Of a stretch of 64,000 nucleotides of DNA, positions 2,997 to 56,502 are shown in pieces. The notes below the pieces were generated by a model. That model did not search any database and was not told where the DNA came from. It worked only from the letters and a program-made list of their open reading frames with translations. Every line of letters begins with the position of its first letter. Within the stretch, counting starts at the first letter, position 1. A program made the position numbers and the translations under genes. Source of the stretch: a virus (Duplodnaviria; Heunggongvirae; Uroviricota; Caudoviricetes); IMG/VR virus record IMGVR_UViG_3300047393_000041, positions 1 through 64,000 of that record; one strand, 5' to 3'.

Positions 2997-5582
2997 TTAA
3001 CCTTTTTTGTTATTTCTGCCCTTAGCATTCTCTTTTGCAACAGCAAGATCGTTTGCCATATTCTCTCTAGCCACTTGTAATTTATCTTTCTCTACAGACA
3101 TTTTATCAGTAGCTTGTTTGTTTTTAGATTGAATATCAGCCATTTTTAATCCGTAATCTTTTGTAGCTTTATCTTGGTCATGAGCTAACCTGCTCATTTC
3201 CATTACATCAGGAATAGCATTTGCATTTGTGTCTTCAGCTTCAACATTTCCAAATCCTGTAGCTTGTATAATAGCAATTTCTTTTTTAGATATTCTATCA
3301 AGTTCTTTTTGGTAATCATCATGAGCTTGTTGCTCTTGAGCAAGTTGAGCAGCTTGTTGCAATGCTGCTTGTGATTGTTCTTGTTGTTGTTGAAGTTTTT
3401 GTTGTTCAAGTTGTTGAGCTTGTTCTTGTTGTGCAATCTGTCTATCTCTAAGGTCTTTGAATGTTTTCTTAAGATCTCTTTGTGATTTAGAACTGTATAA
3501 TTCAACGACATCATAAAGTGTACCACCATTTTGAATAATAGCTTGAGACAATTGTCTAAGCTCATTAAACATTTGAGTATCTTCTGGTCTATTGGTCAAG
3601 AACACTTTTAAATCACGGAATGAAAGATCTGTTCCATTCACTTGTACAAATGCAGATTCACCCTCAGATGTAATATAAGATAATGTTGATTGTGGTTTAG
3701 CACTTTCAATATATAAAGAAGCATCAATTATAGATTGATACAATTGCCCAAGCACATACTCATGTGCCACGAATAGAGGCTCTGTCTGCGAATAACTTTG
3801 CTGCATGGCAGTGTTTGTCCCTGTAGCACTTTCAGAGGCAGAAACAGACCCCATACGCTGTTTAGACATTCCTACAAGTTCCCAACATTCCATCTTGATT
3901 TGTTGAGCTAACGTATATCTAGATTGTATCTCTTGTGTACGTGTAAGGTCAAGAGCTGTAAATTGATTAAATGAGCTAGGAGATTTTAAATTCTCTGGGC
4001 TATCATCTATAAATACAACACCTCTGTTACGTGCTTCCATTTCCCATATATCAAGAGCATCTTGTGCATCTCCATCTTTAGGAATAGGAATATGTCTCAA
4101 TGACATAAGTTGTACTTTACCTACTTCTTTCTCAAGTAGTTTGTACAATTGATTCATACATACATTATAAATCACTTGGAAAGGTTTCATTAAATCAACA
4201 AGTGACTTAGCTTCTGTGTTCTTCACCTCATGTGTAGTTCCTATAATAGGACAATAGTTCAATAACTTAAATGGTTTGATGTGATAGATGTCTGGACCAA
4301 TCTTTGTTCCTTGGTACCACTCATTAATCCATCCCCATTCTAATGATTGTTGTGTAGGCATTGTTCCTGATTTATAAGACTCATCAACAAGTGTAGATTG
4401 CTCATTACCCATTTCATCTATATATATCAACTTACCTATCTTTCTTTTAGATATCCAATAACTTCTTACTACTACGTATTTATATCCAAATGAACTTACA
4501 TTATTAGTTAAGCCTAAGAAATCTTTTAAGCCATCATTGTTTTCTTTCATTTCTGATTCAATCATCATTCTTGTTTGTAACACAAGTGGATCGAATGTAT
4601 CGTACTGAACAGAGTCTTGTCCTTCTGGAGCATTAGGATTTCCAAGGTTAGATTCACGTACATTGATTAATCCATAATCTTGTAATGAACTACGTAAATG
4701 ATCTATCTCTTCTTTACTAAGATCTGGTATAGATTCAATGATTTCTGAAAGTTCCATAACTTGCACAGTACCAGCAGCGTATGCTCCTTGTGCTCTACCT
4801 GTAGGATCTGATATATACTTTCTATCTGGTGTACTTAAGAACCAAGTGTTCTTTGGATTAGACACTTCAATGTTAAATCCAAGCTTCGAGTTATCTTCGT
4901 ATATATGATAGAATTGTCTAGCTGATATAAGCATATCTCTAAAGGCATCTTCTGATTTTTCTTTAATGTTAAACTCAGCTTTATTAGATGTAAGAACATG
5001 ATTAGCCCATTTCTCAGCAATAGATGTATAGCTATCTAACTGATCTTTAACTTGTTCCATTGTCATTTGTTCCAATTGCTCAGGATCAACTTCTTCTCCT
5101 TGCATTGCAGCTTTAGTCATTAGTTGTTGTTTAACTTGACTAATTACATATTGTTGAAGAGTGTCTGTTTTAAATTGCAATTCTTCTGCTTTACTATCAT
5201 CATCAAAAGCTTTCACTCTAAATGTATCTGGACGTTTGCTTATCTCTCCTACTAACTCATTAACAGGAGTGGTGATAATTGAATACATCTTTACGTAAGC
5301 AGGAAGTTCAAGATCTGACGTAAGAACATCTGTAAAGCTTCTTGTCTCTTGTTCTTGATAGAAATCTTCCATGCGTAAGATTCCTTTCATAAGATCATAG
5401 TTCTTAACAAATGTGTCTCTATTCTTCATGTACTCAGCATACGCCTTGTTAGAAAAATAGTCCATTGTATTCTTAATCCAACTCTCATCTTCTTTTTCTT
5501 TCTCTGTTTTAAACTGATCAGGAAAGATGTTTAAGTAAGCATACCTAATGGTAGCATCTTTTGTATATCTAATTATTGCCAT
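2997..5582 (-). CDS. putative portal protein
   Basis: 861-aa ORF immediately downstream of terminase large subunit on same strand. Contains a Gln-rich coiled segment (QQEQAQQLEQQKLQQQQEQSQAALQQAAQ). Assignment by gene order and size. Confidence 0.5.
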   Translation of the reverse strand: MAIIRYTKDATIRYAYLNIFPDQFKTEKEKEDESWIKNTMDYFSNKAYAEYMKNRDTFVKNYDLMKGILRMEDFYQEQETRSFTDVLTSDLELPAYVKMYSIITTPVNELVGEISKRPDTFRVKAFDDDSKAEELQFKTDTLQQYVISQVKQQLMTKAAMQGEEVDPEQLEQMTMEQVKDQLDSYTSIAEKWANHVLTSNKAEFNIKEKSEDAFRDMLISARQFYHIYEDNSKLGFNIEVSNPKNTWFLSTPDRKYISDPTGRAQGAYAAGTVQVMELSEIIESIPDLSKEEIDHLRSSLQDYGLINVRESNLGNPNAPEGQDSVQYDTFDPLVLQTRMMIESEMKENNDGLKDFLGLTNNVSSFGYKYVVVRSYWISKRKIGKLIYIDEMGNEQSTLVDESYKSGTMPTQQSLEWGWINEWYQGTKIGPDIYHIKPFKLLNYCPIIGTTHEVKNTEAKSLVDLMKPFQVIYNVCMNQLYKLLEKEVGKVQLMSLRHIPIPKDGDAQDALDIWEMEARNRGVVFIDDSPENLKSPSSFNQFTALDLTRTQEIQSRYTLAQQIKMECWELVGMSKQRMGSVSASESATGTNTAMQQSYSQTEPLFVAHEYVLGQLYQSIIDASLYIESAKPQSTLSYITSEGESAFVQVNGTDLSFRDLKVFLTNRPEDTQMFNELRQLSQAIIQNGGTLYDVVELYSSKSQRDLKKTFKDLRDRQIAQQEQAQQLEQQKLQQQQEQSQAALQQAAQLAQEQQAHDDYQKELDRISKKEIAIIQATGFGNVEAEDTNANAIPDVMEMSRLAHDQDKATKDYGLKMADIQSKNKQATDKMSVEKDKLQVARENMANDLAVAKENAKGRNNKKG

Positions 5583-15255: not shown

Positions 15256-16566
15256 ATGAGTAAATATAGATTTAGAACAGAAGAAGAATTTAAAGATATT
15301 GACAGATGGATTAATAGAGTTCATACACCAGAAGGTTGGAATACTACTATGTTAACTCATTTAGGAAAAGATGTAGATGATAAATGGATTAAAATAATAG
15401 AACGTCATATGAATTGTGATGATAGTTTCCAAATTGGAAAATATTGGTATAATTCATGTGATTTTATATTGAACGAATCAGAAATGCCAATAGAACAAAT
15501 TTTAGAACAAATTAATTTAAACAAATCCTTAATAACAAAAGAAAAACAGATGAACAATTTAGAAAACATTACAGAAACAGCTACAGAGAAATTCGTATTC
15601 ATGGACAAAACAGATCAAGTTCTTAACATAGGTTTCAACACCTGCAAGAATATTGTTCTTTATGGTCCAGGAGGACATGGAAAATCAGAGAAGACATTAG
15701 ATTTCCTAAAAGAAAGAGGTATTCAGCCTTACGTTATTACAATGGGTACAGGTATGACCACAGATAGATTATTTGGTGGTATGAATATATTAAAGTTCAA
15801 TGAGACAGGTAAAATAGAATATCTTGTAGAGAATTCATTTATGGATCATGAATATGTTGTATTTGAAGAGATGTTTGATGCTCCTGATTTTATCTTAGAG
15901 CAATTAAAAGATATTCTATCAAGTGGTATATTTAGAAATGGTACACAAGTGTATAACATCAAGACTAAGTTCATCATTTGTTGTACAAATAGAACTCGTG
16001 ATGAATTCTCTAAGAATATGTCATTAAGAGCATTGATGGAGAGATTTCCTCTTGAATTAAATGTTATTTGGGATAATTATACTGAGATCAGTTACAACAG
16101 ATTGTTGGAAAGCAAATTTGGTGTTGATAATGTGGATCCAGTTATTCCATACTTGTTACAAGAGTATGCAAAGAATGGTATTACAATCAGTCCAAGGATT
16201 GCTGTAACAGCTTATTCAGTGTATGATCAATGTGGACCAGAAGCATTAAGTTTTATTGCTGAATTCACAAAGAAACCTGCATTAATAGCTGAAGCTATCA
16301 AAACATTTGAGGGAACAATTAAGTTCAGACAAATGTCAGGAGAACTAACTGATATAATGTCAGCGATAAGTCAAGCTCCATTAACAAATAGAGATGATGA
16401 GACAGCATATAAAATCATTCTTAAGAGTCTTAAAGATAAATTAAGTGATCTTAAATCATTAACAGTTAATGACGATCTTGTAAGCATGCACACACAACTT
16501 GTAAAAGGAGCTGTTGCAGTGATGGATAAATGTCAAAAGAATCTTCAAATAGCAGAATTCATATAA
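15256..16566 (+). CDS. MoxR-like AAA+ ATPase (CobS-like)
   Basis: Walker A LYGPGGHGKSEKT, Walker B/MoxR motif VVFEEMFDAPDFILEQLKDIL (cf. DEINRAPPKTQSALLE), sensor-1 FIICCTNRT. Followed by a VWA protein, the classic CobS/CobT-like pairing seen in large phages. Confidence 0.7.
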   Translation: MSKYRFRTEEEFKDIDRWINRVHTPEGWNTTMLTHLGKDVDDKWIKIIERHMNCDDSFQIGKYWYNSCDFILNESEMPIEQILEQINLNKSLITKEKQMNNLENITETATEKFVFMDKTDQVLNIGFNTCKNIVLYGPGGHGKSEKTLDFLKERGIQPYVITMGTGMTTDRLFGGMNILKFNETGKIEYLVENSFMDHEYVVFEEMFDAPDFILEQLKDILSSGIFRNGTQVYNIKTKFIICCTNRTRDEFSKNMSLRALMERFPLELNVIWDNYTEISYNRLLESKFGVDNVDPVIPYLLQEYAKNGITISPRIAVTAYSVYDQCGPEALSFIAEFTKKPALIAEAIKTFEGTIKFRQMSGELTDIMSAISQAPLTNRDDETAYKIILKSLKDKLSDLKSLTVNDDLVSMHTQLVKGAVAVMDKCQKNLQIAEFI

Positions 16567-17945
16567 TGAAAGATTTATGGGGAAATGAGTATACAGATTA
16601 TAAAGACGAGTATACTCATCCTTCATTCACTCCAAGAAAAAGGAGTAGTGGAGGATGGAAAAGTAAATATGGTAGTGGTGGTTGGTCAAAGAGTAGTTGG
16701 TCTAACTATTCATTTGTAGTTTCGTATGAAGATAATGACGATAGTTTATTCGTTAAAGATCCAGTACACTATTTAACACCAACTGCTGTGGATATCAAGA
16801 AGAAAGTCAATGTAAGAAAACAAGACTCTATTGATATGATTAAAGAACTAGCTCGTGTATGTTATTTCAAAATGATTGATGAAAAAGACTATGTAGCTGA
16901 TGCATTCATTGAAGAAGATCAACAAAGTGATACTCAAAGAGGAAAGAAACAATTGTTCGATAGTATCTATGATCAATATATTCCTGGATTCACACCATTA
17001 GAACAAGCTATATCTATTTATTTAAAACTAAAAGATAACAGTGCTGGTGAGTCTGGTGAGAAAGATGAAGATGAAATGGATATGAAGAAAGGATTAGAGT
17101 TTGATAGAACTCTATATACTGATCCAAGTATCAATGAACAATTGAATCTTAATCCAATGAGTAAAGAGAGATCAATGGAGATATTAAATCTTTTATCTCT
17201 TGTTGGTGAGTTTGGTACTGAATTCAAAGTGGAGAAAGAAATAGATGAGAAAATAGTTGCTAACTCTGATCAATATCTTAAAACAATCATGAGAAGTCAT
17301 GATCAATTAACAATGATTGATCTTTATCAAAGACTTCTTCCTAACTTTGATATTAAATTCTTAACTAAAGACTTAACAGTAAATGTTCCAGTTGATAGAA
17401 AAGAACAGAAGCAAAAGATTATCATTATATTAGATTTCTCTGGTAGTATGGATGATCCTGAAAAACAAATTTGGGTTAACGCTATTCTTATAGATAGATT
17501 CAAATATGTAATGAGAGGAGAAGCTGAAGTATTCTTTAGTTATTTTGTACATGATGCAGATGAATTAGAGTTTCAACATATCACAAACAGAGAAGAGGTT
17601 ATATCATTTTGGCAAACATTCTCTAATGAACCTGATGGTGGATCAACTGAAGTGGCATATATGGTTGAAAGAATTGCTTCTGAAATTAATGAGCATAAGC
17701 TTTGTAACTTAGGTGTAGATTTATTTGAAGAGAAACCAGAGATATTAATTATCAATGATGGACAAGATACAATTAATACAAAAAAGTTCCCTTATAAAGT
17801 GAATGCTATCACATTGATGGAATATAATGATGATTTAAAGAATCTTTGTCTTCAGACTGGTGGTAAACTAATTCAAGTGAATGGAGATCAATCAGTGTAT
17901 TCTCATTCAAAAGAAGCAGGTAAGTTACAAATAACTAAAAAATAA
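16566..17945 (+). CDS. von Willebrand factor A (VWA) domain protein (CobT-like partner of the AAA+ ATPase)
   Basis: MIDAS motif IIIILDFSGSMDD (DxSxS). Start placed at ATG 16566 (TAATG overlap) rather than the longer overlapping ORF start 16530. Confidence 0.65.
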   Translation: MKDLWGNEYTDYKDEYTHPSFTPRKRSSGGWKSKYGSGGWSKSSWSNYSFVVSYEDNDDSLFVKDPVHYLTPTAVDIKKKVNVRKQDSIDMIKELARVCYFKMIDEKDYVADAFIEEDQQSDTQRGKKQLFDSIYDQYIPGFTPLEQAISIYLKLKDNSAGESGEKDEDEMDMKKGLEFDRTLYTDPSINEQLNLNPMSKERSMEILNLLSLVGEFGTEFKVEKEIDEKIVANSDQYLKTIMRSHDQLTMIDLYQRLLPNFDIKFLTKDLTVNVPVDRKEQKQKIIIILDFSGSMDDPEKQIWVNAILIDRFKYVMRGEAEVFFSYFVHDADELEFQHITNREEVISFWQTFSNEPDGGSTEVAYMVERIASEINEHKLCNLGVDLFEEKPEILIINDGQDTINTKKFPYKVNAITLMEYNDDLKNLCLQTGGKLIQVNGDQSVYSHSKEAGKLQITKK

Positions 17946-19665: not shown

Positions 19666-20067
19666 GGGGGTGACTGGTTTTGACAGGTTACTACTAATTG
19701 ATACAATCAGCCCAGAGAGATAACTGGCTAAAACTAAGGTGAATTTTAATAAATGACAACAAAGTAATTTCGTTAGATGTTAACCAAGTTAACGCTAACA
19801 TGAGCAAAGTTTTTTCATTAATTAACTCTAATGTTGAGGAGCTAGAAATGGCTGCATAAGCATTAAATCTGTCAACACTGGCTAGACATAAAGATTGCCA
19901 TAAGAGGTTTGTATGATTCCTTAAAAACATTCTGGTGGATTCGTTTACTTTTACAGTAGACCCTAGAGTTATCCTGTAGACTCTTTAAATAAGTATGGGG
20001 ACAAAAAGCTGTATAAATTGTATTAATGAAAGTAATTTGGACGGGAGTTCGACTCTCCCCACCTCCA
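19666..20067 (+). ncRNA. ssrA: tmRNA (SsrA-like transfer-messenger RNA)
   Basis: 5' GGGGGTGACTGGTTTTGACAGG and 3' GGACGGGAGTTCGACTCTCCCCACCTCCA give a 7-bp acceptor stem with the G3:U70 pair. T-arm GGGAG/TTCGACT/CTCCC. Internal tag-like frame ends ...NSNVEELEMAA then TAA at 19857-19859. No CCA encoded. Confidence 0.7.
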
Positions 20068-20143
20068 CGATGTTGGATAGCTACCAAATGAACTTAGTGG
20101 TAACAACGGAAAACCTAAGAGAGATTAACAAAAACTCCGTACA

Positions 20144-32124: not shown

Positions 32125-32342
32125 TGACACCAAAAGAAAAAGCACAAGAAATAATTGAAAAATATATATATATTCAATCTGAACTTGAAGAGACAACTCA
32201 ATTTTATTTGAGTTATGCAGTAAAGTGTGCATTAATAGCAGTTAATGAGATATTAGATTTAGGATATGTTCCTAATGAAAAATCTACATTTAATGTATAT
32301 AAATTTTATTCAGAAGTTAAACTAGAAATAGAGCTATTATGA
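32124..32342 (+). CDS. hypothetical protein
   Basis: 72-aa ORF. Confidence 0.35.
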   Translation: MTPKEKAQEIIEKYIYIQSELEETTQFYLSYAVKCALIAVNEILDLGYVPNEKSTFNVYKFYSEVKLEIELL

Positions 32343-33406
32343 GTTTTGAACTATTAAATGCTGAAGTTGAGAAAGGAATGCATGATCTTAATAGAGGGAT
32401 TCCTATGGGATTTGATAGACTTACTAGATATGTAGGTATTCGTAAGGGTATGTACTATTTGATTGGTGGTAACACTGGATCTGGTAAGACATCATTTATT
32501 GATGATGCATTTGTTCTCAATCCTGTTGATTGGGCCATGTCTAAAGAAGGACTTGCATCAGGCATTAAGGTGAAGATATGGTATAGGTCCATGGAGAGAA
32601 GTAGAACTTACAAGTATGCCAAATGGGTATCTCGTAAGATATTTCTAGACCAGGGTATAATCATTCCAGTAGGTAAGTTACTTGGCTGGAGAGAGAAAAT
32701 GACTAAAGATGAACATGATCTGTTTTTATATTATAAAGATTATGTAGATCATCTTAGTGAAATAGTAACTATTATAGATGGTCCAGAGAATCCTGTAGGT
32801 ATAGCTAAAGAGTTAAAGACTTATGCTTTGAAGAATGGTGTGATAGAACAAATGGATGAATGGAATAAAATGTATGTTCCTGAAGATCCAAGTCAAATCA
32901 CCATGGTTGTACTTGATCACATTGGTCTACTTAAGACTACTAAAGATCAACCAACAAAGAAAGCAGCTATCGACAAAATGTCTGATGAACTCAGATATGC
33001 TAGAGATTTCTATGGATATTCTCCAGTGGTAGTAAGTCAGTTTAACAGAAGTATTTCTAATCCATCTAGGATTAAGAATGGTGATGTTGAACCTCAGCTT
33101 GAAGATTTTGCAGACAGTTCAGCTACACAAAATGATGCTGATGTTGTTATGGCATTATTTGATCCTATGAGATATAAAGTGGCAGATCCTTCTGGATATG
33201 ATCTTGATAAGCTAACAGATCAATATGGAGCTAAATACTTCAGAAGCTTGAGACTACTCAAGAATAGTTACGGAGAAGATGATGTCAGAATAGGTCTTGG
33301 ATTCCTTGGTGAAATTGGTATGTTTAAAGAATTACCAAGAAAGAAAGAAATTACAGATTCTGATTATGAATCAATTACAAACAAATCATATTTTTTAAGA
33401 GAATAA
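32339..33406 (+). CDS. DnaB-like replicative helicase (SF4, RecA-fold C-terminal domain)
   Basis: Walker A LIGGNTGSGKTSF, Walker B MVVLDHIGLL, H3 motif VVVSQFNRS (cf. DnaB SQLNR), H4 ADVVMALFDP. Confidence 0.6.
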   Translation: MSFELLNAEVEKGMHDLNRGIPMGFDRLTRYVGIRKGMYYLIGGNTGSGKTSFIDDAFVLNPVDWAMSKEGLASGIKVKIWYRSMERSRTYKYAKWVSRKIFLDQGIIIPVGKLLGWREKMTKDEHDLFLYYKDYVDHLSEIVTIIDGPENPVGIAKELKTYALKNGVIEQMDEWNKMYVPEDPSQITMVVLDHIGLLKTTKDQPTKKAAIDKMSDELRYARDFYGYSPVVVSQFNRSISNPSRIKNGDVEPQLEDFADSSATQNDADVVMALFDPMRYKVADPSGYDLDKLTDQYGAKYFRSLRLLKNSYGEDDVRIGLGFLGEIGMFKELPRKKEITDSDYESITNKSYFLRE

Positions 33407-33421
33407 TTAAAAACACAAATT

Positions 33422-34891
33422 ATGAATCCACTATTTTTAACAGATGGCTATAAAACAGCTCATCACATAATGTATCCAAAAGGAACTACATTAGTTTATT
33501 CAAACTTTACACCAAGAAGCAATAAATATGCTCCTAAAGGATGTGATAACTTAGTATCATTTGGACAACAGATGATGATGCAACAGATTCATGAAGCATT
33601 TCAAAAAGATTTCTTTAGTTTACCTAAAGATGAAGTTTGTCAAGAAATGAAAGAAGAATTAGAATTATATTTAGGAATGACTTATGATGTTAGTCATTTT
33701 GAAGCCTTACATGATATTGGATATCTGCCTATTTGTGTAAAGATAATTGAAGAAGGAACATTAGTTCCTATGAAGGTTCCTGTTCTTACAATATACAATA
33801 CACATCCAGACTTTTATTGGTTAACAAACTATTTAGAAACAATCATTTCAAATCTATTGTGGAAACCTATGACAAGTGCAACTATTGCACATACTTATAG
33901 AAAGGTGTTAACTAAATGGCAACAAAAAACTGATGCTGAAAAAGGTTGGTTTATTGATTGGCAAGGTCATGATTTCTCTATGAGAGGTATGGATAGTGTT
34001 GATGCTGTTATTAGTTCTGGTCTTGGACATCTTACATCTTTCATGGGAACAGATAGTCTTCCAACAATATATGGAGCACGTAAATACTATGCTGCAGAAG
34101 GACAAGTTGGAGGATCTGTACCAGCTACTGAACATTCAGTTATGTGTGCAGGAGGTAAAGAAGATGAAACAGAAACCTTTAGAAGACTTTTATCATTATA
34201 TCCAACAGGAATCTTATCAGTTGTTAGTGATACTTGGGACTTATGGAAAGTGTGTACAGAACATGTTGTAACACTCAAAGAAGAAATCTTAGCAAGAGAT
34301 GGTAAGTTGGTAATTAGACCTGATAGTGGAGATCCTGTTGATATTATTTGTGGTACAATGTTACCAAGTGATCCTGATTTTTTAGCTAGAAAAAATAGTC
34401 CTGAAGAAATAGGAGTAATTGAATTACTTTGGAATGTATTTGGTGGAACTATCAATGAACAAGGATACAAAGTATTAGATAGTCACATTGGGGCTATTTA
34501 TGGTGATTCAATTACTATTGATAGAGCTGATGAAATCTGTAGCAAGTTAGAAGCTAAAGGATTTGCAAGTACAAATATTGTTCTTGGTATTGGTTCTTTT
34601 ACTTATCAATACAACACTAGAGATACATTTGGTTTTGCAATGAAAGCTACTTATGTTGATGTAAATGGTGTAGGACAAGAAATCTTTAAAGATCCTATTA
34701 CTGATGATGGAATTAAAAAATCAGCTAAAGGATTATTGAGAGTGAATGCTGATCTTACATTATCAGATCAAGTGTCTTGGAAAGAACAAGAAGAAGAAGG
34801 AATACTGCAAGTTTTGTACAGAGATGGTGTATTTGAAAATTACACAAATTTTAAAACAATTAAAGAAAAATTAAATGAGTTACGAAATTAA
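33422..34891 (+). CDS. nadV: nicotinamide phosphoribosyltransferase family protein (Nampt/NadV-like; could equally be a Namat-type enzyme)
   Basis: N-terminus NPLFLTDGYKTAHHIMYPKGTT...YSNFTPR matches Nampt NILLATDSYKVTHY...YFECR. FMGTDSLPTIYGARKYY matches the Nampt GTDT region. Confidence 0.75.
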   Translation: MNPLFLTDGYKTAHHIMYPKGTTLVYSNFTPRSNKYAPKGCDNLVSFGQQMMMQQIHEAFQKDFFSLPKDEVCQEMKEELELYLGMTYDVSHFEALHDIGYLPICVKIIEEGTLVPMKVPVLTIYNTHPDFYWLTNYLETIISNLLWKPMTSATIAHTYRKVLTKWQQKTDAEKGWFIDWQGHDFSMRGMDSVDAVISSGLGHLTSFMGTDSLPTIYGARKYYAAEGQVGGSVPATEHSVMCAGGKEDETETFRRLLSLYPTGILSVVSDTWDLWKVCTEHVVTLKEEILARDGKLVIRPDSGDPVDIICGTMLPSDPDFLARKNSPEEIGVIELLWNVFGGTINEQGYKVLDSHIGAIYGDSITIDRADEICSKLEAKGFASTNIVLGIGSFTYQYNTRDTFGFAMKATYVDVNGVGQEIFKDPITDDGIKKSAKGLLRVNADLTLSDQVSWKEQEEEGILQVLYRDGVFENYTNFKTIKEKLNELRN

Positions 34892-35687
34892 TAAGTACCC
34901 TGATGGTACACAATATGTAAAAGTGCTTAAGTTTGAAAATGAGTTAGTAGTTGATATTAATTCATATCAAGATCTTTGGACATTAAATCAGATAAAAGAT
35001 ATATATGATCACAATCATAAAAAAGTTGGTCTGTTTATTCCTTGTTTGTTAGATGCTCAAGCAGATAAACGTTTTAACCCTGATGAAAGTTCAGGGTTGA
35101 AACTTGTATGTGAGTTTATAAACTCAATGAAGTTTACTTATGTAAAAGTGTGTCATCCTCATAATCCTGAAGTAGTAGAAGCATTGTTAGACAATTCAAT
35201 AATAATTGATAATAGTAATTTTATTGTAAAAGTTTTAGAAGATTTAAATTTAACTAATGGTGAACTCACTTTAATGTCTACTGATGCTGGAGGATTCAAA
35301 CCATTAATGAAACTTGCTGATAAATTACAATGGTCAGGAGAAGTTTATGGAGCATCTAAATCAAGAAAATATGAAGATGGTAAATCTAAATTAATTCAAG
35401 AAATAGATAGACAAGATTTTGGAGGTAAAGACATTCTTATCATAGATGATATTTGTGTGTATGGTGGAACATTTGTTGGTTTAGCTAATATGCTAAGAGA
35501 ACGTAATTGTGGAAAACTATATTTAGCAGTAAGTCATATGACTGTAGAAAGTCCAAATAAAGATTTATTCAAATTATTTGATAAAGTTTTCACCACATCT
35601 AGTAAGAACATTAGTTATCTAATAAAAAATGATGTACATGATACAATATTTGGAATTGTTCCAACTAATCTAATTATCATTAAATAA
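34875..35687 (+). CDS. ribose-phosphate pyrophosphokinase (Prs)-like phosphoribosyltransferase-fold protein
   Basis: LFIPCLLDAQADKRF...SGLKLVCEFI (cf. Prs IPYFGYARQDRK...SAKLVANLL). VCHPHNPEVV (cf. VDLHAEQIQ). PRPP-binding loop ILIIDDICVYGGTF (cf. VLVDDMIDTGGTL). 270 aa, shorter than canonical Prs. Confidence 0.65.
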   Translation: MSYEINKYPDGTQYVKVLKFENELVVDINSYQDLWTLNQIKDIYDHNHKKVGLFIPCLLDAQADKRFNPDESSGLKLVCEFINSMKFTYVKVCHPHNPEVVEALLDNSIIIDNSNFIVKVLEDLNLTNGELTLMSTDAGGFKPLMKLADKLQWSGEVYGASKSRKYEDGKSKLIQEIDRQDFGGKDILIIDDICVYGGTFVGLANMLRERNCGKLYLAVSHMTVESPNKDLFKLFDKVFTTSSKNISYLIKNDVHDTIFGIVPTNLIIIK

Positions 35688-35694
35688 AATAATT

Positions 35695-36201
35695 ATGACA
35701 ATACAAAGAAGAATAAAGAGATTCTTTAATAGGTTTGATTATATGAGAACATACAATTCTCCATTCAAACCATTAAGAATAAAATGGTATTTTGGCAAGG
35801 TGGCTATTGGTACACCATATTTCCTTCCAAGAAGATGGGTTGATAGTAAAATAAACCCAGGATACCTAACACCAGTTCCTAAGCAAATAGGATTTGATTT
35901 TGTATCATTAGGTTGGAAGACTAAATGGGATAGTTATAGACATGAATGGAATCCATTAGTGAGCTTTGTGTTCTTTAAATGGCAAGCAGCTGTAATGTTT
36001 GTTCCAGATCATGATTCACACTATTGGGAATGTTGGTTATACTACACTAGAGAAACAAATAAAAAGAATTCTGTAGAAGATAGAATAGCTCAATGTAGAA
36101 AGTTTGCTCCTTGTGAATGGACAAGACATACTGATGGAGTAACATCAGTGATAAATTATTATGATGTAATTTTAAAAGATAAGTATGTCAATAAGAGATG
36201 A
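35695..36201 (+). CDS. hypothetical protein
   Basis: 168-aa ORF, W/Y-rich. Confidence 0.4.
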   Translation: MTIQRRIKRFFNRFDYMRTYNSPFKPLRIKWYFGKVAIGTPYFLPRRWVDSKINPGYLTPVPKQIGFDFVSLGWKTKWDSYRHEWNPLVSFVFFKWQAAVMFVPDHDSHYWECWLYYTRETNKKNSVEDRIAQCRKFAPCEWTRHTDGVTSVINYYDVILKDKYVNKR

Positions 36202-37288
36202 GAGGCAATTAGAATTTGCTAAAGTGTGGTTAAAAGAGAAGCATGGTATATTGAATTTGTGTCCAAGGTTTGGAAAGATTAGAACTAGTATTAATATACT
36301 AAAAGAATTACCTAAATCACTTAGTTACACTCATGTAACAGTTTCTCCTTCAGTGTTAATTGCTTACCCAGATAATAAGATTAAAGAATCTTGGCAAGCT
36401 GATTTTAATGATCTTGGGTATGATGATAGTAATGTCACATACAGCACACATCTATCATTAAAAAAGTTAGTAGACAATGAGTATGATATTATTATTATAG
36501 ATGAGATACATCTTTTGTCTGAAGCTCAGATAGAAGTGTGTAAGGATCTACTTAGTAACAATGCTTGTATACTAGGTCTCACTGGTACATTATCCAGAGA
36601 AACAGAAATAACTCTTGAGGAAGAACTTGATTTACATGTTATAGCTCACTATCCAATTGAAAAAGCAATTGAAGAAGGAGTTATTGTAGATTATGAGATA
36701 CATGTAATAAGAGTACCACTAGATAATACTGTATATAATGATTACAAAGGAAAGCTCAAGACTGAGAAGAAACACTATGATGGTATATCATGGGTAATCA
36801 ATAAAATGCAATATAGTGGTGGAGATACAATGTTTATGCGTCTAGCAAGAATGCGAGTTATTCAATCATCTTTGGCCAAAACTAATGCTACAAAAAAGCT
36901 GTTAGCTGCACATAAAGATGAGAGAATCTTAGTATTCTGTGGAACCACTGCTGTAGCAGATAATCTAGGTATTCCTTCCTATCATAATAAGTCTAAAGAA
37001 AAAGAAATCTTTGAAGACTTTGCTGAAGGTAAAGGTAATCATCTAGCTGTTGTAAAGATTGGTAATACAGGAGTGACGTATAAACCTCTTGATCGAGTAA
37101 TAATAAACTATTTCGATAGTAATGCAGAGAACTTAGCTCAGAAAATTAACAGATGTATGGCTATGGAATATAACACTCCAGATAAGAAAGCACATGTATA
37201 TATAGTGAGTAGTAATGAACCTGTAGAGCTGAAATGGTTATCAAAGGCATTAGAATTCTTTGATAAAAGCAAGATAAAATATGTATAA
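36185..37288 (+). CDS. SF2 helicase (DEIH-box)
   Basis: Motif I-like CPRFGKIRT, motif II IIIIDEIHLL, motif III LGLTGTLSRE, C-terminal RecA-like domain with VFCGTTAVAD. Confidence 0.5.
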   Translation: MSIRDERQLEFAKVWLKEKHGILNLCPRFGKIRTSINILKELPKSLSYTHVTVSPSVLIAYPDNKIKESWQADFNDLGYDDSNVTYSTHLSLKKLVDNEYDIIIIDEIHLLSEAQIEVCKDLLSNNACILGLTGTLSRETEITLEEELDLHVIAHYPIEKAIEEGVIVDYEIHVIRVPLDNTVYNDYKGKLKTEKKHYDGISWVINKMQYSGGDTMFMRLARMRVIQSSLAKTNATKKLLAAHKDERILVFCGTTAVADNLGIPSYHNKSKEKEIFEDFAEGKGNHLAVVKIGNTGVTYKPLDRVIINYFDSNAENLAQKINRCMAMEYNTPDKKAHVYIVSSNEPVELKWLSKALEFFDKSKIKYV

Positions 37289-37348: not shown

Positions 37349-38023
37349 ATGAGTTCAAAGCTAGTAGGAATTGTGGGTGCAACAGGTACAGGAAAAAGTA
37401 CAGCGATTAAGCACCTAAATCCAGAGGAAACGTACATTATTAATGTTGCAAAGAAGGAGCTTCCATTTAGAGGAAGTGAAAAGCTTTACAACACAGAGAA
37501 CAAGAATTACAAGGAAATTGAAGATGCAAATGAAATATCTCGTTTATTGAGAACTATTTCTGATAAAGCTCCTCACATCAAGAACATTATTATTGAAGAC
37601 AGTAATTACATTATGGGATTCAATATGGTTAACAAAGCTACAGAGGTAGGATTTACAAAATTTAGTGTTATGGCTAAAGACATGGTTGATCTATTCAGAA
37701 CAGCTAGACAGTTGAGAGATGATGTCACTGTATTCTATCTTACACATCCAGAAGAAATAATGGATGGTCAAGATGTTATAGGATATAAGATCAAAACTGC
37801 AGGTAAGTTAATTGATAACCAAGTTCTTTTAGAAGGATTGTTAACTGTATGTTTATATACAATCGTAGAAGAAAATAAAGATGGAACAGCTAATTATCAA
37901 TTTGTAACTAATCGTTACAGAAAGATACCAGCAAAGAGTCCTGATGGAATGTTCCAAGAAATTAAAATACCAAATGATCTGCAAATAGTTGCAGACAGTT
38001 TAACTAATTATTATAATGCCTAA
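37349..38023 (+). CDS. P-loop ATPase (RecA-core-only; Sak4/AAA_24-like candidate)
   Basis: N-terminal Walker A LVGIVGATGTGKSTAIK, Walker B IIIEDSNYIMG. 224 aa. Located in replication/recombination module. Confidence 0.4.
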   Translation: MSSKLVGIVGATGTGKSTAIKHLNPEETYIINVAKKELPFRGSEKLYNTENKNYKEIEDANEISRLLRTISDKAPHIKNIIIEDSNYIMGFNMVNKATEVGFTKFSVMAKDMVDLFRTARQLRDDVTVFYLTHPEEIMDGQDVIGYKIKTAGKLIDNQVLLEGLLTVCLYTIVEENKDGTANYQFVTNRYRKIPAKSPDGMFQEIKIPNDLQIVADSLTNYYNA

Positions 38024-53098: not shown

Positions 53099-53776
53099 AT
53101 GATTATAGGTATATCAGGAAAGATAGGATCTGGTAAAGATACTATTGGAGAGATAATTCAAGGATTGTCTATCACTAATGGAGGAAGAGAGTTTGAAGTT
53201 AAGAAATTTGCAGGGAAGCTAAAACAAATAGCTTCTCTGTTAACAGGTTTTCCTGTAGAGAAGTTTGAAGATCAAGAATTCAAAAAGGCTCTTCTTGGAG
53301 AAGAATGGGGAACTGTGAGACCAAATCCTCTTAATGCTATTCCAGTATTTGAAGATGTACACTTTAATGAACTTATGTCTGTTAGAGAACTTCTTCAAAA
53401 ACTTGGTACAGAAGCTATGCGTGATGGATTACATCAAAATGTATGGGTGAATGCTTTGTTTGCTGATTATAGAAGACCAAAGATGAGTGAACCTAATCCA
53501 AGTAATTGGATTGTTACAGATGTTAGGTTTCCTAATGAATTAGCAGCAATCAATGATGTGAATGGATTAACTATTAGAATTACAAGTCCATTTATTAGAT
53601 TCTCAGATGGATCATATAGAGCTAAATCTAAAATGATGGGAGATTTCGACAATGAACACCCTTCAGAAACAGCTCTGGATGATGCTGAGTTTGATTATGA
53701 AATCATTAATGATGGATCTATAGATGATCTAATATCAAAAGTTAGACAAATATTAATAACAGAAAAAATTATATGA
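53099..53776 (+). CDS. deoxynucleoside monophosphate kinase (T4 gp1-like)
   Basis: MIIGISGKIGSGKDTIGEII parallels T4 Dnk MKLIFLSGVKRSGKDTTADFI. Confidence 0.5.
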   Translation: MIIGISGKIGSGKDTIGEIIQGLSITNGGREFEVKKFAGKLKQIASLLTGFPVEKFEDQEFKKALLGEEWGTVRPNPLNAIPVFEDVHFNELMSVRELLQKLGTEAMRDGLHQNVWVNALFADYRRPKMSEPNPSNWIVTDVRFPNELAAINDVNGLTIRITSPFIRFSDGSYRAKSKMMGDFDNEHPSETALDDAEFDYEIINDGSIDDLISKVRQILITEKII

Positions 53777-54198
53777 CAATAAACATAGATTTTGATGGAA
53801 CTTGTGTAACTCATAGTTTTCCACAAATAGGTAAAAGTATTGGTTCTGTACCAGTACTTAGAAAATTAACTGATGCAGGACATCATCTCATATTATTTAC
53901 TATGAGAAGTAATAGAATAACATTTAAAACAATCAATAAGCATATTGTTCCTGATGTAAAAGGAACATTTTTAAATGATGCCATACAATGGTTCATAGAC
54001 AATGAAATTCCTTTATACGGTGTAAATAGTGATCCAGATCAACATAACTGGACAGAGAGTCCTAAAAGTTTTGCTGATTTAATGATAGATGACTCAGCTC
54101 TTGGATGTCCATTAAAATATGATCCAAGTTTATCACATAGACCATTTGTAGATTGGGAAGAAGTAGAGAAATTATTAATACAACAAAAATTTATATAA
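53773..54198 (+). CDS. HAD-superfamily hydrolase-like protein (possible nucleotidase)
   Basis: HAD motif I INIDFDGTCV (DxDGT). 141 aa. Confidence 0.4.
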   Translation: MTINIDFDGTCVTHSFPQIGKSIGSVPVLRKLTDAGHHLILFTMRSNRITFKTINKHIVPDVKGTFLNDAIQWFIDNEIPLYGVNSDPDQHNWTESPKSFADLMIDDSALGCPLKYDPSLSHRPFVDWEEVEKLLIQQKFI

Positions 54199-55845: not shown

Positions 55846-56502
55846 GTGGAAAAAATGAAAGAACCTAATCGAGTTAGAAAATCAGAAATTAAATATGCTG
55901 TAGTCTTAAACGAAGAGCAGAAGCTTGCTAAAGAACTAATTATTAATAATCAAATAGTAATTGTTACTGGTAGAGCTGGAAGTGGTAAGTCATTAGTGTG
56001 TGCACAATCAGCTTTGGACTTCTTAATGAAGAAACAATGTGCTCACGTGTATGTTACTAGAGCCACAGTTGAGGTGGGAGAATCATTAGGGTTTTTACCA
56101 GGAAGTCTTGAAGATAAATTTAATCCTTATTTGGAAGCATTTCAAGAGAACTTAGAAAAATGTTATGATAAACTCAAAATTCAAGACCTGGTTAAGGACA
56201 AGAAAATACTTGCTTATCCTATTCAGTTTATACGTGGTAAAACTATTGATGATGTGTTGGTGGTGGAAGAAGCGCAAAACCTGTCAAAAGGGGAAATGCT
56301 CGCTATACTAACTAGACTTGGTAAAACAGGTAAGATAATCATCAATGGAGATAATGAACAAAAGGATATTAAAGAATCCTATACTGGTCTATCTTATGCT
56401 ATTGAATTATCTAAGAAGATTGAAGGAATAGAATGGATTAAACTTAAAGCTAATCACAGAAGTGATTTAGTTGGTAAAATATTAGATCTCGAGTACAATT
56501 AA
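55846..56502 (+). CDS. phoH: PhoH-like ATPase
   Basis: Walker A IVTGRAGSGKS. VLVVEEAQNLSKGEMLAILTRLGKTGKIIINGD matches PhoH DEAQN...LTRiG...GD. Confidence 0.75.
   Translation: MEKMKEPNRVRKSEIKYAVVLNEEQKLAKELIINNQIVIVTGRAGSGKSLVCAQSALDFLMKKQCAHVYVTRATVEVGESLGFLPGSLEDKFNPYLEAFQENLEKCYDKLKIQDLVKDKKILAYPIQFIRGKTIDDVLVVEEAQNLSKGEMLAILTRLGKTGKIIINGDNEQKDIKESYTGLSYAIELSKKIEGIEWIKLKANHRSDLVGKILDLEYN

Follow-up and report, generated by a model that had tools for sequence, protein, structure and literature searches.

The closest described relatives of the gene pair reported here belong to NARP1, a two-gene NAD+ reconstitution pathway that consists of an Adps and a Namat (Osterman et al., bioRxiv 10.1101/2024.02.11.579819). 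Adps, an ADP-ribose (ADPR) pyrophosphate synthetase, is a homologue of the ribose-phosphate pyrophosphokinase Prs, whereas Namat, a nicotinamide ADP-ribose transferase, is a homologue of Nampt that produces NAD+ from ADPR pyrophosphate (ADPR-PP) and nicotinamide. According to the same study, NARP1 is present in ~4% of sequenced phages; a second pathway, NARP2, combines an Nmnat with a true Nampt from a clade of its own, and no phage is reported to carry both NARP1 and NARP2 (bioRxiv 10.1101/2024.02.11.579819). We analysed a 64,000-nucleotide (nt) stretch of DNA from an uncultured tailed phage (positions 1 to 64,000 of IMG/VR virus record IMGVR_UViG_3300047393_000041, hereafter the window) and found that two overlapping genes near its middle, here called namat and adps, very probably constitute a plain two-gene NARP1 module. 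NARP1 itself is already established; what is new is a member of it in an uncultured phage lineage, together with a divergent Adps subtype. The locus indicates that NARP1 counter-defence is carried by an uncultured, crAss-related type of phage with a low guanine-plus-cytosine (GC) content. The module comprises:

33422..34891, + strand: namat, an open reading frame (ORF) for a Nampt-family protein of 489 amino acids (aa), a predicted nicotinamide ADP-ribose transferase; it begins MNPLFLTDGYKTAHH
34875..35687, + strand: adps, an ORF for a Prs-like protein of 270 aa, a predicted ADP-ribose pyrophosphate synthetase
34875..34891, + strand: 17-nt overlap between the namat stop and the adps start, read from the sequence

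As an earlier note on this DNA had described them, the two genes overlap, are co-directional and encode products of 489 and 270 aa. The ATG of adps is located 17 nt within the end of namat (...AAATGAGTTACGAAATTAA...), and a promoter and terminator scan gave no signal between the two genes. Because the genes overlap and no signals separate them, these data suggest that namat and adps are co-transcribed and translationally coupled. Promoter-like sites were rarer in the sequence than in shuffles of it, and the promoter and terminator scans were uninformative. At the level of protein families, the matches of both proteins were much stronger than chance would give. The 489-aa protein matched Pfam NAPRTase (1e-39) and NAMPT_N, PHROG 448 (7e-190) and NCBIfam NF006629 (541 bits vs a cut-off of 405). 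The 270-aa protein matched Pfam Pribosyltran (7.5e-10), PHROG 619 'ribose-phosphate pyrophosphokinase' (7e-41) and every NCBIfam Prs model, always under the cut-off. With TIGR01251 it scored 62 bits (3e-17) vs a cut-off of 113, compared with 98 bits for ICP1 Adps, 106 for SPbetaL1 Adps, 119 for the Bas61 homologue and 423 for E. coli Prs. A DNA-level search of INPHARED returned no close relative (top match, 48% coverage at 64% identity), and comparisons were therefore made at the protein level.

The SPbetaL1 Namat structures (9W5W/9W5X) revealed a two-part adenine 'selectivity clamp', for which a longer beta1-beta2 loop gives the stacking residue (PMC12774641). These two entries were the top PDB matches of the 489-aa protein, at 515 bits vs ~212 for human and Xanthomonas Nampt; as a control, a KVP40-type Nampt showed the reverse (403 bits to Xanthomonas Nampt vs 239 to Namat). 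The 489-aa protein shares 38–56% identity overall with NARP1-linked proteins (55% with FADO Namat, 51% with SPbetaL1 Namat, 47–49% with the Staphylococcus, mycobacteriophage and ICP1 homologues and 38% with Bas61), compared with 29–32% for human, Xanthomonas, KVP40-like, T4-like and BcepSauron Nampts. In a neighbour-joining tree, Nampts and Adps-linked proteins were split in 100% of 300 bootstraps, the 489-aa protein being on the Namat side. The positions that distinguish or unite the two families are as follows:

34592..34624, + strand: selectivity-clamp helix (SCH) motif GSFTYQYNTRD, residues 391–401, identical to that of SPbetaL1
33524..33529, + strand: selectivity-clamp loop (SCL) residues Lys35-Tyr36, aligned (by alignment only) to SPbetaL1 Arg40
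34133..34135, + strand: His238, the catalytic histidine position, in an EHS motif kept in every aligned Namat and Nampt

Where the 489-aa protein has GSFTYQYNTRD, Nampts carry GGGLLQxLxRD. In Namats, the SCL loop has Arg, Lys or Tyr at its third position plus a stacking residue, and in a Namat with Lys at the Arg40 position the next residue stacks instead (PMC12774641). As judged from the alignment only, this loop of the 489-aa protein exceeds that of bacterial and phage Nampts by ~5 residues. Besides the histidine, Asp8, Tyr10, Phe185, Arg188, Asp211, Arg299 and Asp301 of the catalytic core are kept (in SPbetaL1 numbering the core comprises Asp13', Tyr15', Phe189, Arg192, Asp215, the catalytic His, Arg306 and Asp308). 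Of the residues that contact NAD+ in SPbetaL1, 22 of 25 are identical in the 489-aa protein, the whole GSFTYQYNTRD motif included; the three others, among them Arg40 with Lys35-Tyr36 in its place, carry substitutions that all occur in other Namats. Two further clade markers are common to the 489-aa protein and Namats: HDFSMRG (HDFGxRG in Nampts) and IYGD (IQGD in Nampts). On this basis the 489-aa protein is predicted to be a Namat and not a Nampt. PDB 9KE8/9KEO, solved as a 'nicotinamide phosphoribosyltransferase', shares 47% identity with the window Namat and clusters with Namats; it has GAQTYQRNTRD, without both aromatic clamp residues.

Structures of ICP1 Adps are available with ADPR/ATP and with ADPR-PP/AMP: ADPR spans the former ATP and ribose-5-phosphate sites and is contacted by F18', R87, F92, H121, D161, D212 and D213, the aromatic residues F18 and F92 holding its adenine, whereas ATP sits on a remodelled pyrophosphate (PP) loop (C215–S220), over which F221 and F223 form a cap; K185 is indispensable, and the alpha11-alpha12 helices of Prs are lost (PMC13586617). 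Mutating the catalytic lysine kills the activity of both SPbetaL1 and ICP1 Adps (bioRxiv 10.1101/2024.02.11.579819; PMC13586617). The 270-aa protein is 33% identical to Bas61 and SPbetaL1 Adps, 28% to ICP1 Adps, 25% to Sulfolobus Prs and 24% to E. coli Prs, and neighbour-joining split Prs from Adps with bootstraps of 99.7% (18 taxa) and 100% (146 taxa), the 270-aa protein falling among the phage ones. Its main sites are:

35058..35075, + strand: QADKRF motif, residues 62–67, with Gln62 aligned to ICP1 Arg87
35358..35360, + strand: catalytic Lys162, aligned to SPbetaL1 K162, ICP1 K185 and E. coli K194
35445..35474, + strand: ribose-binding Asp pair and PP loop DDICVYGGTF, residues 191–200, with Asp191/192 corresponding to ICP1 D212/D213

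When the ICP1 residues are carried over to the window protein, F18 becomes Tyr8, F92 Phe67, H121 His96, D161 Asp137, K185 Lys162, R187 Arg164, D212/D213 Asp191/192, C215 Cys194 and F221 Phe200, the last two being donor contacts in ICP1 and F221 also the lid. Six of the seven ADPR-binding residues are thus matched, the seventh, Arg87, being Gln62. The position equivalent to ICP1 217 is Thr in 6/6 cellular Prs and Gly, Phe or Tyr in every Adps; it is Tyr196 in the window protein. Likewise, the PP loop reads CVYGGT followed by Phe200 in the window, compared with [IV][DS]T[GA]GT followed by L, I or M in 6/6 cellular Prs. Of the 128 nearest full-length cluster representatives that a search of 1.84 billion proteins yielded, 117 had the Phe lid and none the Prs Thr. 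The 270-aa protein lacks the N-terminal ~25 residues and the C-terminal alpha11-alpha12 helices of E. coli Prs, the alignment stopping at the strand that precedes these helices. Among 120 homologues, of which the most distant is 57% identical, its key residues, Lys162 included, never vary, a pattern that speaks in favour of an active enzyme. Taken together, these features identify the 270-aa protein as a predicted Adps of a divergent subtype. The practical benefit is one of annotation: genes that at present carry the labels 'nicotinamide phosphoribosyltransferase' and 'ribose-phosphate pyrophosphokinase' should be taken as Namat and Adps. Within adps, the stretch over the conserved RFNPDESSGLKL holds a stem-loop of 13 bp with a weak T tail (35071..35103, + strand), which probably just reflects the encoded protein sequence.

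The earlier note had pointed to the Prs motifs DAQADKR, CHPHN and IIDDICVYGGT and to a length shorter than that of housekeeping Prs. All three motifs are present, and the shorter length is explained by the missing N-terminal residues and C-terminal helices. What it named the 'PRPP loop' (PRPP, phosphoribosyl pyrophosphate) corresponds to the ATP-donor site of the ICP1 Adps structure (PMC13586617). Within DAQADKR, an Arg-to-Gln change distinguishes the protein from all the assayed Adps that could be checked.

We then considered whether the two genes travel together. A Namat gene was found within 7 kb and on the same strand in 52 of the 54 IMG/VR loci whose Adps has the PP-loop type of the window, and one of the two loci without it is cut off on its upstream side. 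Nearly all of the linked Namats have a clamp-type motif whose third position is aromatic. Three metagenomic contigs with close Adps homologues carry a NAPRTase-family gene directly upstream, in three different neighbourhoods. The linkage of the two genes is thus shown, as are the ORFs themselves, the family placement of their products and the conservation of catalytic and specificity residues. In the 52 linked loci, namat is upstream in 16 and downstream in 36, whereas adps comes first in all seven cultured or reference NARP1 loci retrieved. The namat-then-adps order of the window is therefore common in uncultured phages; as both orders occur among the 52 loci, the idea that namat-first order is a distinguishing feature was rejected.

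The module most closely resembles the NARP1 of SPbetaL1 and FADO, which also consists of two adjacent co-directional genes: the Namats are 51–55% identical, with the same clamp motif and catalytic residues, and the Adps proteins have in common the catalytic Lys162, the Phe lid and a PP loop in which GGT follows an aromatic residue. The differences are that namat comes first in the window and adps in the Bacillus phages, that the Adps proteins are just 30–34% identical, with Gln62/Val195 in the window vs Arg/Ser, and that the host lineage of the window phage is probably not Firmicutes. ICP1 Adps belongs to the same fold family, shows the same truncations relative to Prs and is matched at F18 (Tyr in the window), F92, H121, D161, K185, R187, D212, D213, C215 and F221; however, it is 28% identical, has Arg87/Asp216 vs Gln/Val in the window, and its PP loop reads CDGAAS vs CVYGGT. 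In the Bacteroides crAss-like phage DAC15, gp036–gp038 are annotated as Nampt, hypothetical protein and Prs. Like the window phage, DAC15 is a low-GC phage of Bacteroidota type in which namat precedes adps, and the Namats are 49% identical. In DAC15, however, namat and adps are separated by a small HAD-like gene, and its Adps is of the Arg/Asp type and just 25% identical to that of the window. Cellular Prs (from E. coli, and the class III archaeal 4TWB and 1U9Y) share with the window Adps the two-domain PRPS fold signature, the catalytic Lys/Arg loop, the DD pair, and the His and Asp. They differ from it by an identity of 22–25%, and the window Adps has neither the ribose-5-phosphate-loop Thr, the C-terminal helices nor the Arg of the RQD motif and scores under every NCBIfam Prs cut-off.

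If the pair works as NARP1 does, a host NADase defence of the SIR2, TIR or SEFIR type would cleave NAD+ into ADPR and nicotinamide; the 270-aa Adps would then move the beta,gamma-pyrophosphate of ATP onto the 1'' hydroxyl of ADPR to form ADPR-PP, and the 489-aa Namat would swap the pyrophosphate of ADPR-PP for nicotinamide, regenerating NAD+ directly. Several points weigh against this assignment. The enzyme activities, substrate preference and anti-defence role of the pair are predictions from sequence, and the 270-aa protein is just 28–33% identical to assayed Adps enzymes. All trees were built by neighbour-joining, and the outgroup of the Adps/Prs trees comprised only six cellular Prs. Namat enzymes can accept PRPP in vitro if no ADPR-PP is present, and SPbetaL1 Namat can make nicotinamide mononucleotide (NMN) from it (bioRxiv 10.1101/2024.02.11.579819). 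The analysis covered only ~64 kb of a genome that may measure 110 kb, and an Nmnat may be encoded outside the window. Finally, two substrate-site residues depart from the ICP1 enzyme: Arg87, an ADPR contact, is Gln62, and Asp216 is Val195 in the window Adps.

This last point was examined across the family. Arg is found at position 87 (ICP1 numbering) in all the assayed Adps that could be checked and in the cellular Prs compared. The Arg-type Adps checked were SPbetaL1 and ICP1 (assayed in vitro) and FADO (in vivo), with Bas61 and LeBron as proxies that stand in for the tested Bas63 and DyoEdafos; in the assayed enzymes, Arg is paired with Asp or Ser at position 216, and SPbetaL1 is active with Ser. 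By contrast, Gln62 is present in 120/120 close homologues of the window protein, in which position 195 is occupied by Val, Ile or Leu. In a set of 146 sequences, covariation of the two positions is strict: Gln is accompanied by Val, Ile, Leu or Met in 54/55 sequences, and Arg by Asp, Glu, Ser, Thr or Ala in 84/84 phage or metagenomic sequences and 6/6 cellular Prs. The Gln and hydrophobic combination accounts for ~40% of the nearest cluster representatives. That the Gln-type Adps form a single clade was rejected, as they do not make up one bipartition in the neighbour-joining tree.

This strict covariation, the fact that both positions touch substrates in the ICP1 structure and the Arg type of every assayed Adps that could be checked would all agree with a NARP1-like pair of altered chemistry, the Gln62/Val195 Adps using an acceptor or donor other than ADPR and ATP or differing in regulation. 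We regard this as quite improbable. The adenine clamp of the partner Namat is identical to that of SPbetaL1, which implies an adenine-bearing ADPR-PP intermediate; all the other catalytic and ADPR-contact residues of the Adps are kept; and the joint loss of Arg and Asp is charge-neutral and may merely swap packing contacts.

A second variable feature of these loci is a cap-less HAD-type protein of ~125–150 aa. Its gene separates or flanks namat and adps in 23 of the 54 related loci, or ~40% (L022:6247-6633, L014, which is DAC15, at 5121-5549, L005:5600-6004 and 20 further IMG/VR loci). It carries the motifs DFDDT ... K-x-Y-x-N ... DDR and matches PHROG 1238 and PDB 2OBB (7e-8). The gene is present in the closest relative of the window, whose Namat is 97% identical, but in the window it is found neither inside nor beside namat/adps. 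We found no mention of a HAD-type NARP1 accessory phosphatase, the published one being a Macro-domain protein; the HAD-type protein may fill the role of the Macro-domain Adpp without being homologous to it, or simply be a nucleotidase. The window has its own distant HAD-like member of PHROG 1238 at 53773..54198 (+ strand; MTINIDFDGT...), which scores 103 bits to the PHROG and 28 bits to a profile of the NARP1-linked HAD group. It is located 18 kb from the module, and its position between the dNMP (deoxynucleoside monophosphate) kinase and ThyX genes suggests a role in nucleotide metabolism rather than in NARP1. It is conceivable, though unlikely, that the Gln/hydrophobic subtype has a changed acceptor, donor or regulation, or that the HAD enzyme dephosphorylates a modified ADPR for the pathway; if true, either would add a new branch to the NAD+ arms race. 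Both the Gln/hydrophobic subtype and the recurrent HAD-like neighbour are leads for enzymology, not findings.

Returning to the assignment of the pair to NARP1, we asked how it compares with classical NAD+ salvage, in which the Prs-like protein would make PRPP, the Nampt-like protein NMN, and an Nmnat of the host, or of the phage but outside the window, NAD+. Such a route would agree with the matches of both proteins to Prs and Nampt profiles, with the formation of NMN from PRPP by SPbetaL1 Namat in vitro, and with the fact that only part of the phage genome is visible. It is nevertheless very improbable: the 489-aa protein falls in the Namat group with 100% bootstrap and has a complete adenine clamp, absent from Nampts; NARP2 Nampts constitute a separate clade, and no phage is reported with both pathways; and the Prs-like protein, under the TIGR01251 cut-off (62 bits vs 113), lacks the ribose-5-phosphate-loop Thr, its loop reading V-Y-G-G-T and not the D-T-x-G-T of Prs. 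Window ORFs of at least 90 aa gave no match to an Nmnat (CTP_transf_like), Nudix, Macro or RyR domain. The one candidate Nmnat, at 55846..56499, was a weak phmmer match of the BcepSauron Nmnat and was rejected, the gene encoding PhoH. NARP2, as exemplified by KVP40 with its NadV Nampt and NatV Nmnat/Nudix protein, likewise restores NAD+ with a phage Nampt-family enzyme. However, its Nampt is ~30% identical to the 489-aa protein, belongs to the Nampt clade, is without the adenine clamp and needs an Nmnat and no Adps; within the 64-kb window, the 489-aa protein lies outside the Nampt clade and no Nmnat is encoded. As namat and adps overlap and the flanking ORF has no Macro or RyR match, the NARP1-AP form (with the Macro-domain phosphatase Adpp) and the RyDEP-extended form of NARP1 (with an RyR-domain glycosidase) do not apply. 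NARP3 (PnuC and NadR) was set aside, neither protein type being involved.

The earlier note had left NARP1 and classical salvage of the NadV/NatV type side by side as inseparable from sequence alone. With the published determinants and reference sequences they do separate: the Namat clamp, the Adps features and the trees bear out the first scenario, and the second is disfavoured, with no Nmnat in the window. The phylogenetic placement against Nampt/Namat and Prs/Adps sets that it had proposed as a check put the two proteins on the Namat side (100% bootstrap) and the Adps side (99.7–100%). Published structural determinants thus suffice to tell NARP1 from plain NAD+ salvage by sequence.

The window is phage DNA of ~31% GC. 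Its terminase is nearest to that of Leptolyngbya phage Lbo-JY46 (40%) and to those of Cellulophaga, Flavobacterium and crAss-like phages. As close homologues of the 270-aa Prs-like protein sit on contigs of 110–117 kb, the phage genome is probably ~110 kb, of which the window represents a little over half. A P22-like portal, a large terminase, RecA/UvsX, PhoH, ThyX, dNMP kinase and MazG are also encoded. The namat and adps genes are located inside a long co-directional block, the early replication block, with a DnaB-like helicase on one side and a superfamily 2 (SF2) helicase on the other:

32339..33406: DnaB-like helicase, upstream of namat
35695..36201, + strand: 168-aa ORF, directly downstream of adps
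36185..37288: SF2 helicase, after the 168-aa ORF
37349..38023: Sak4-like annealing protein, after the SF2 helicase

The 168-aa ORF is Trp-rich and overlaps the helicase gene by 17 nt; its product had no Pfam or PHROG match and no Macro/RyR match. Its family, of >1100 metagenomic clusters, is also represented in other phage contexts where NARP1 is absent, so that it was rejected as a third NARP1 component; it is also missing from a close relative of the namat/adps locus. Elsewhere in the window, early-region ORFs at 15256..17945 and nearby (+ strand) gave domain matches to a MoxR/AAA_5-type ATPase and to SPFH/Band 7. A full-length transfer-messenger RNA gene lies in the early region (19666..20070, + strand); ARAGORN and Rfam RF00023 (81 bits, E 5e-30) both detected it, and its predicted tag peptide is VNQVNANMSKVFSLINSNVEELEMAA.

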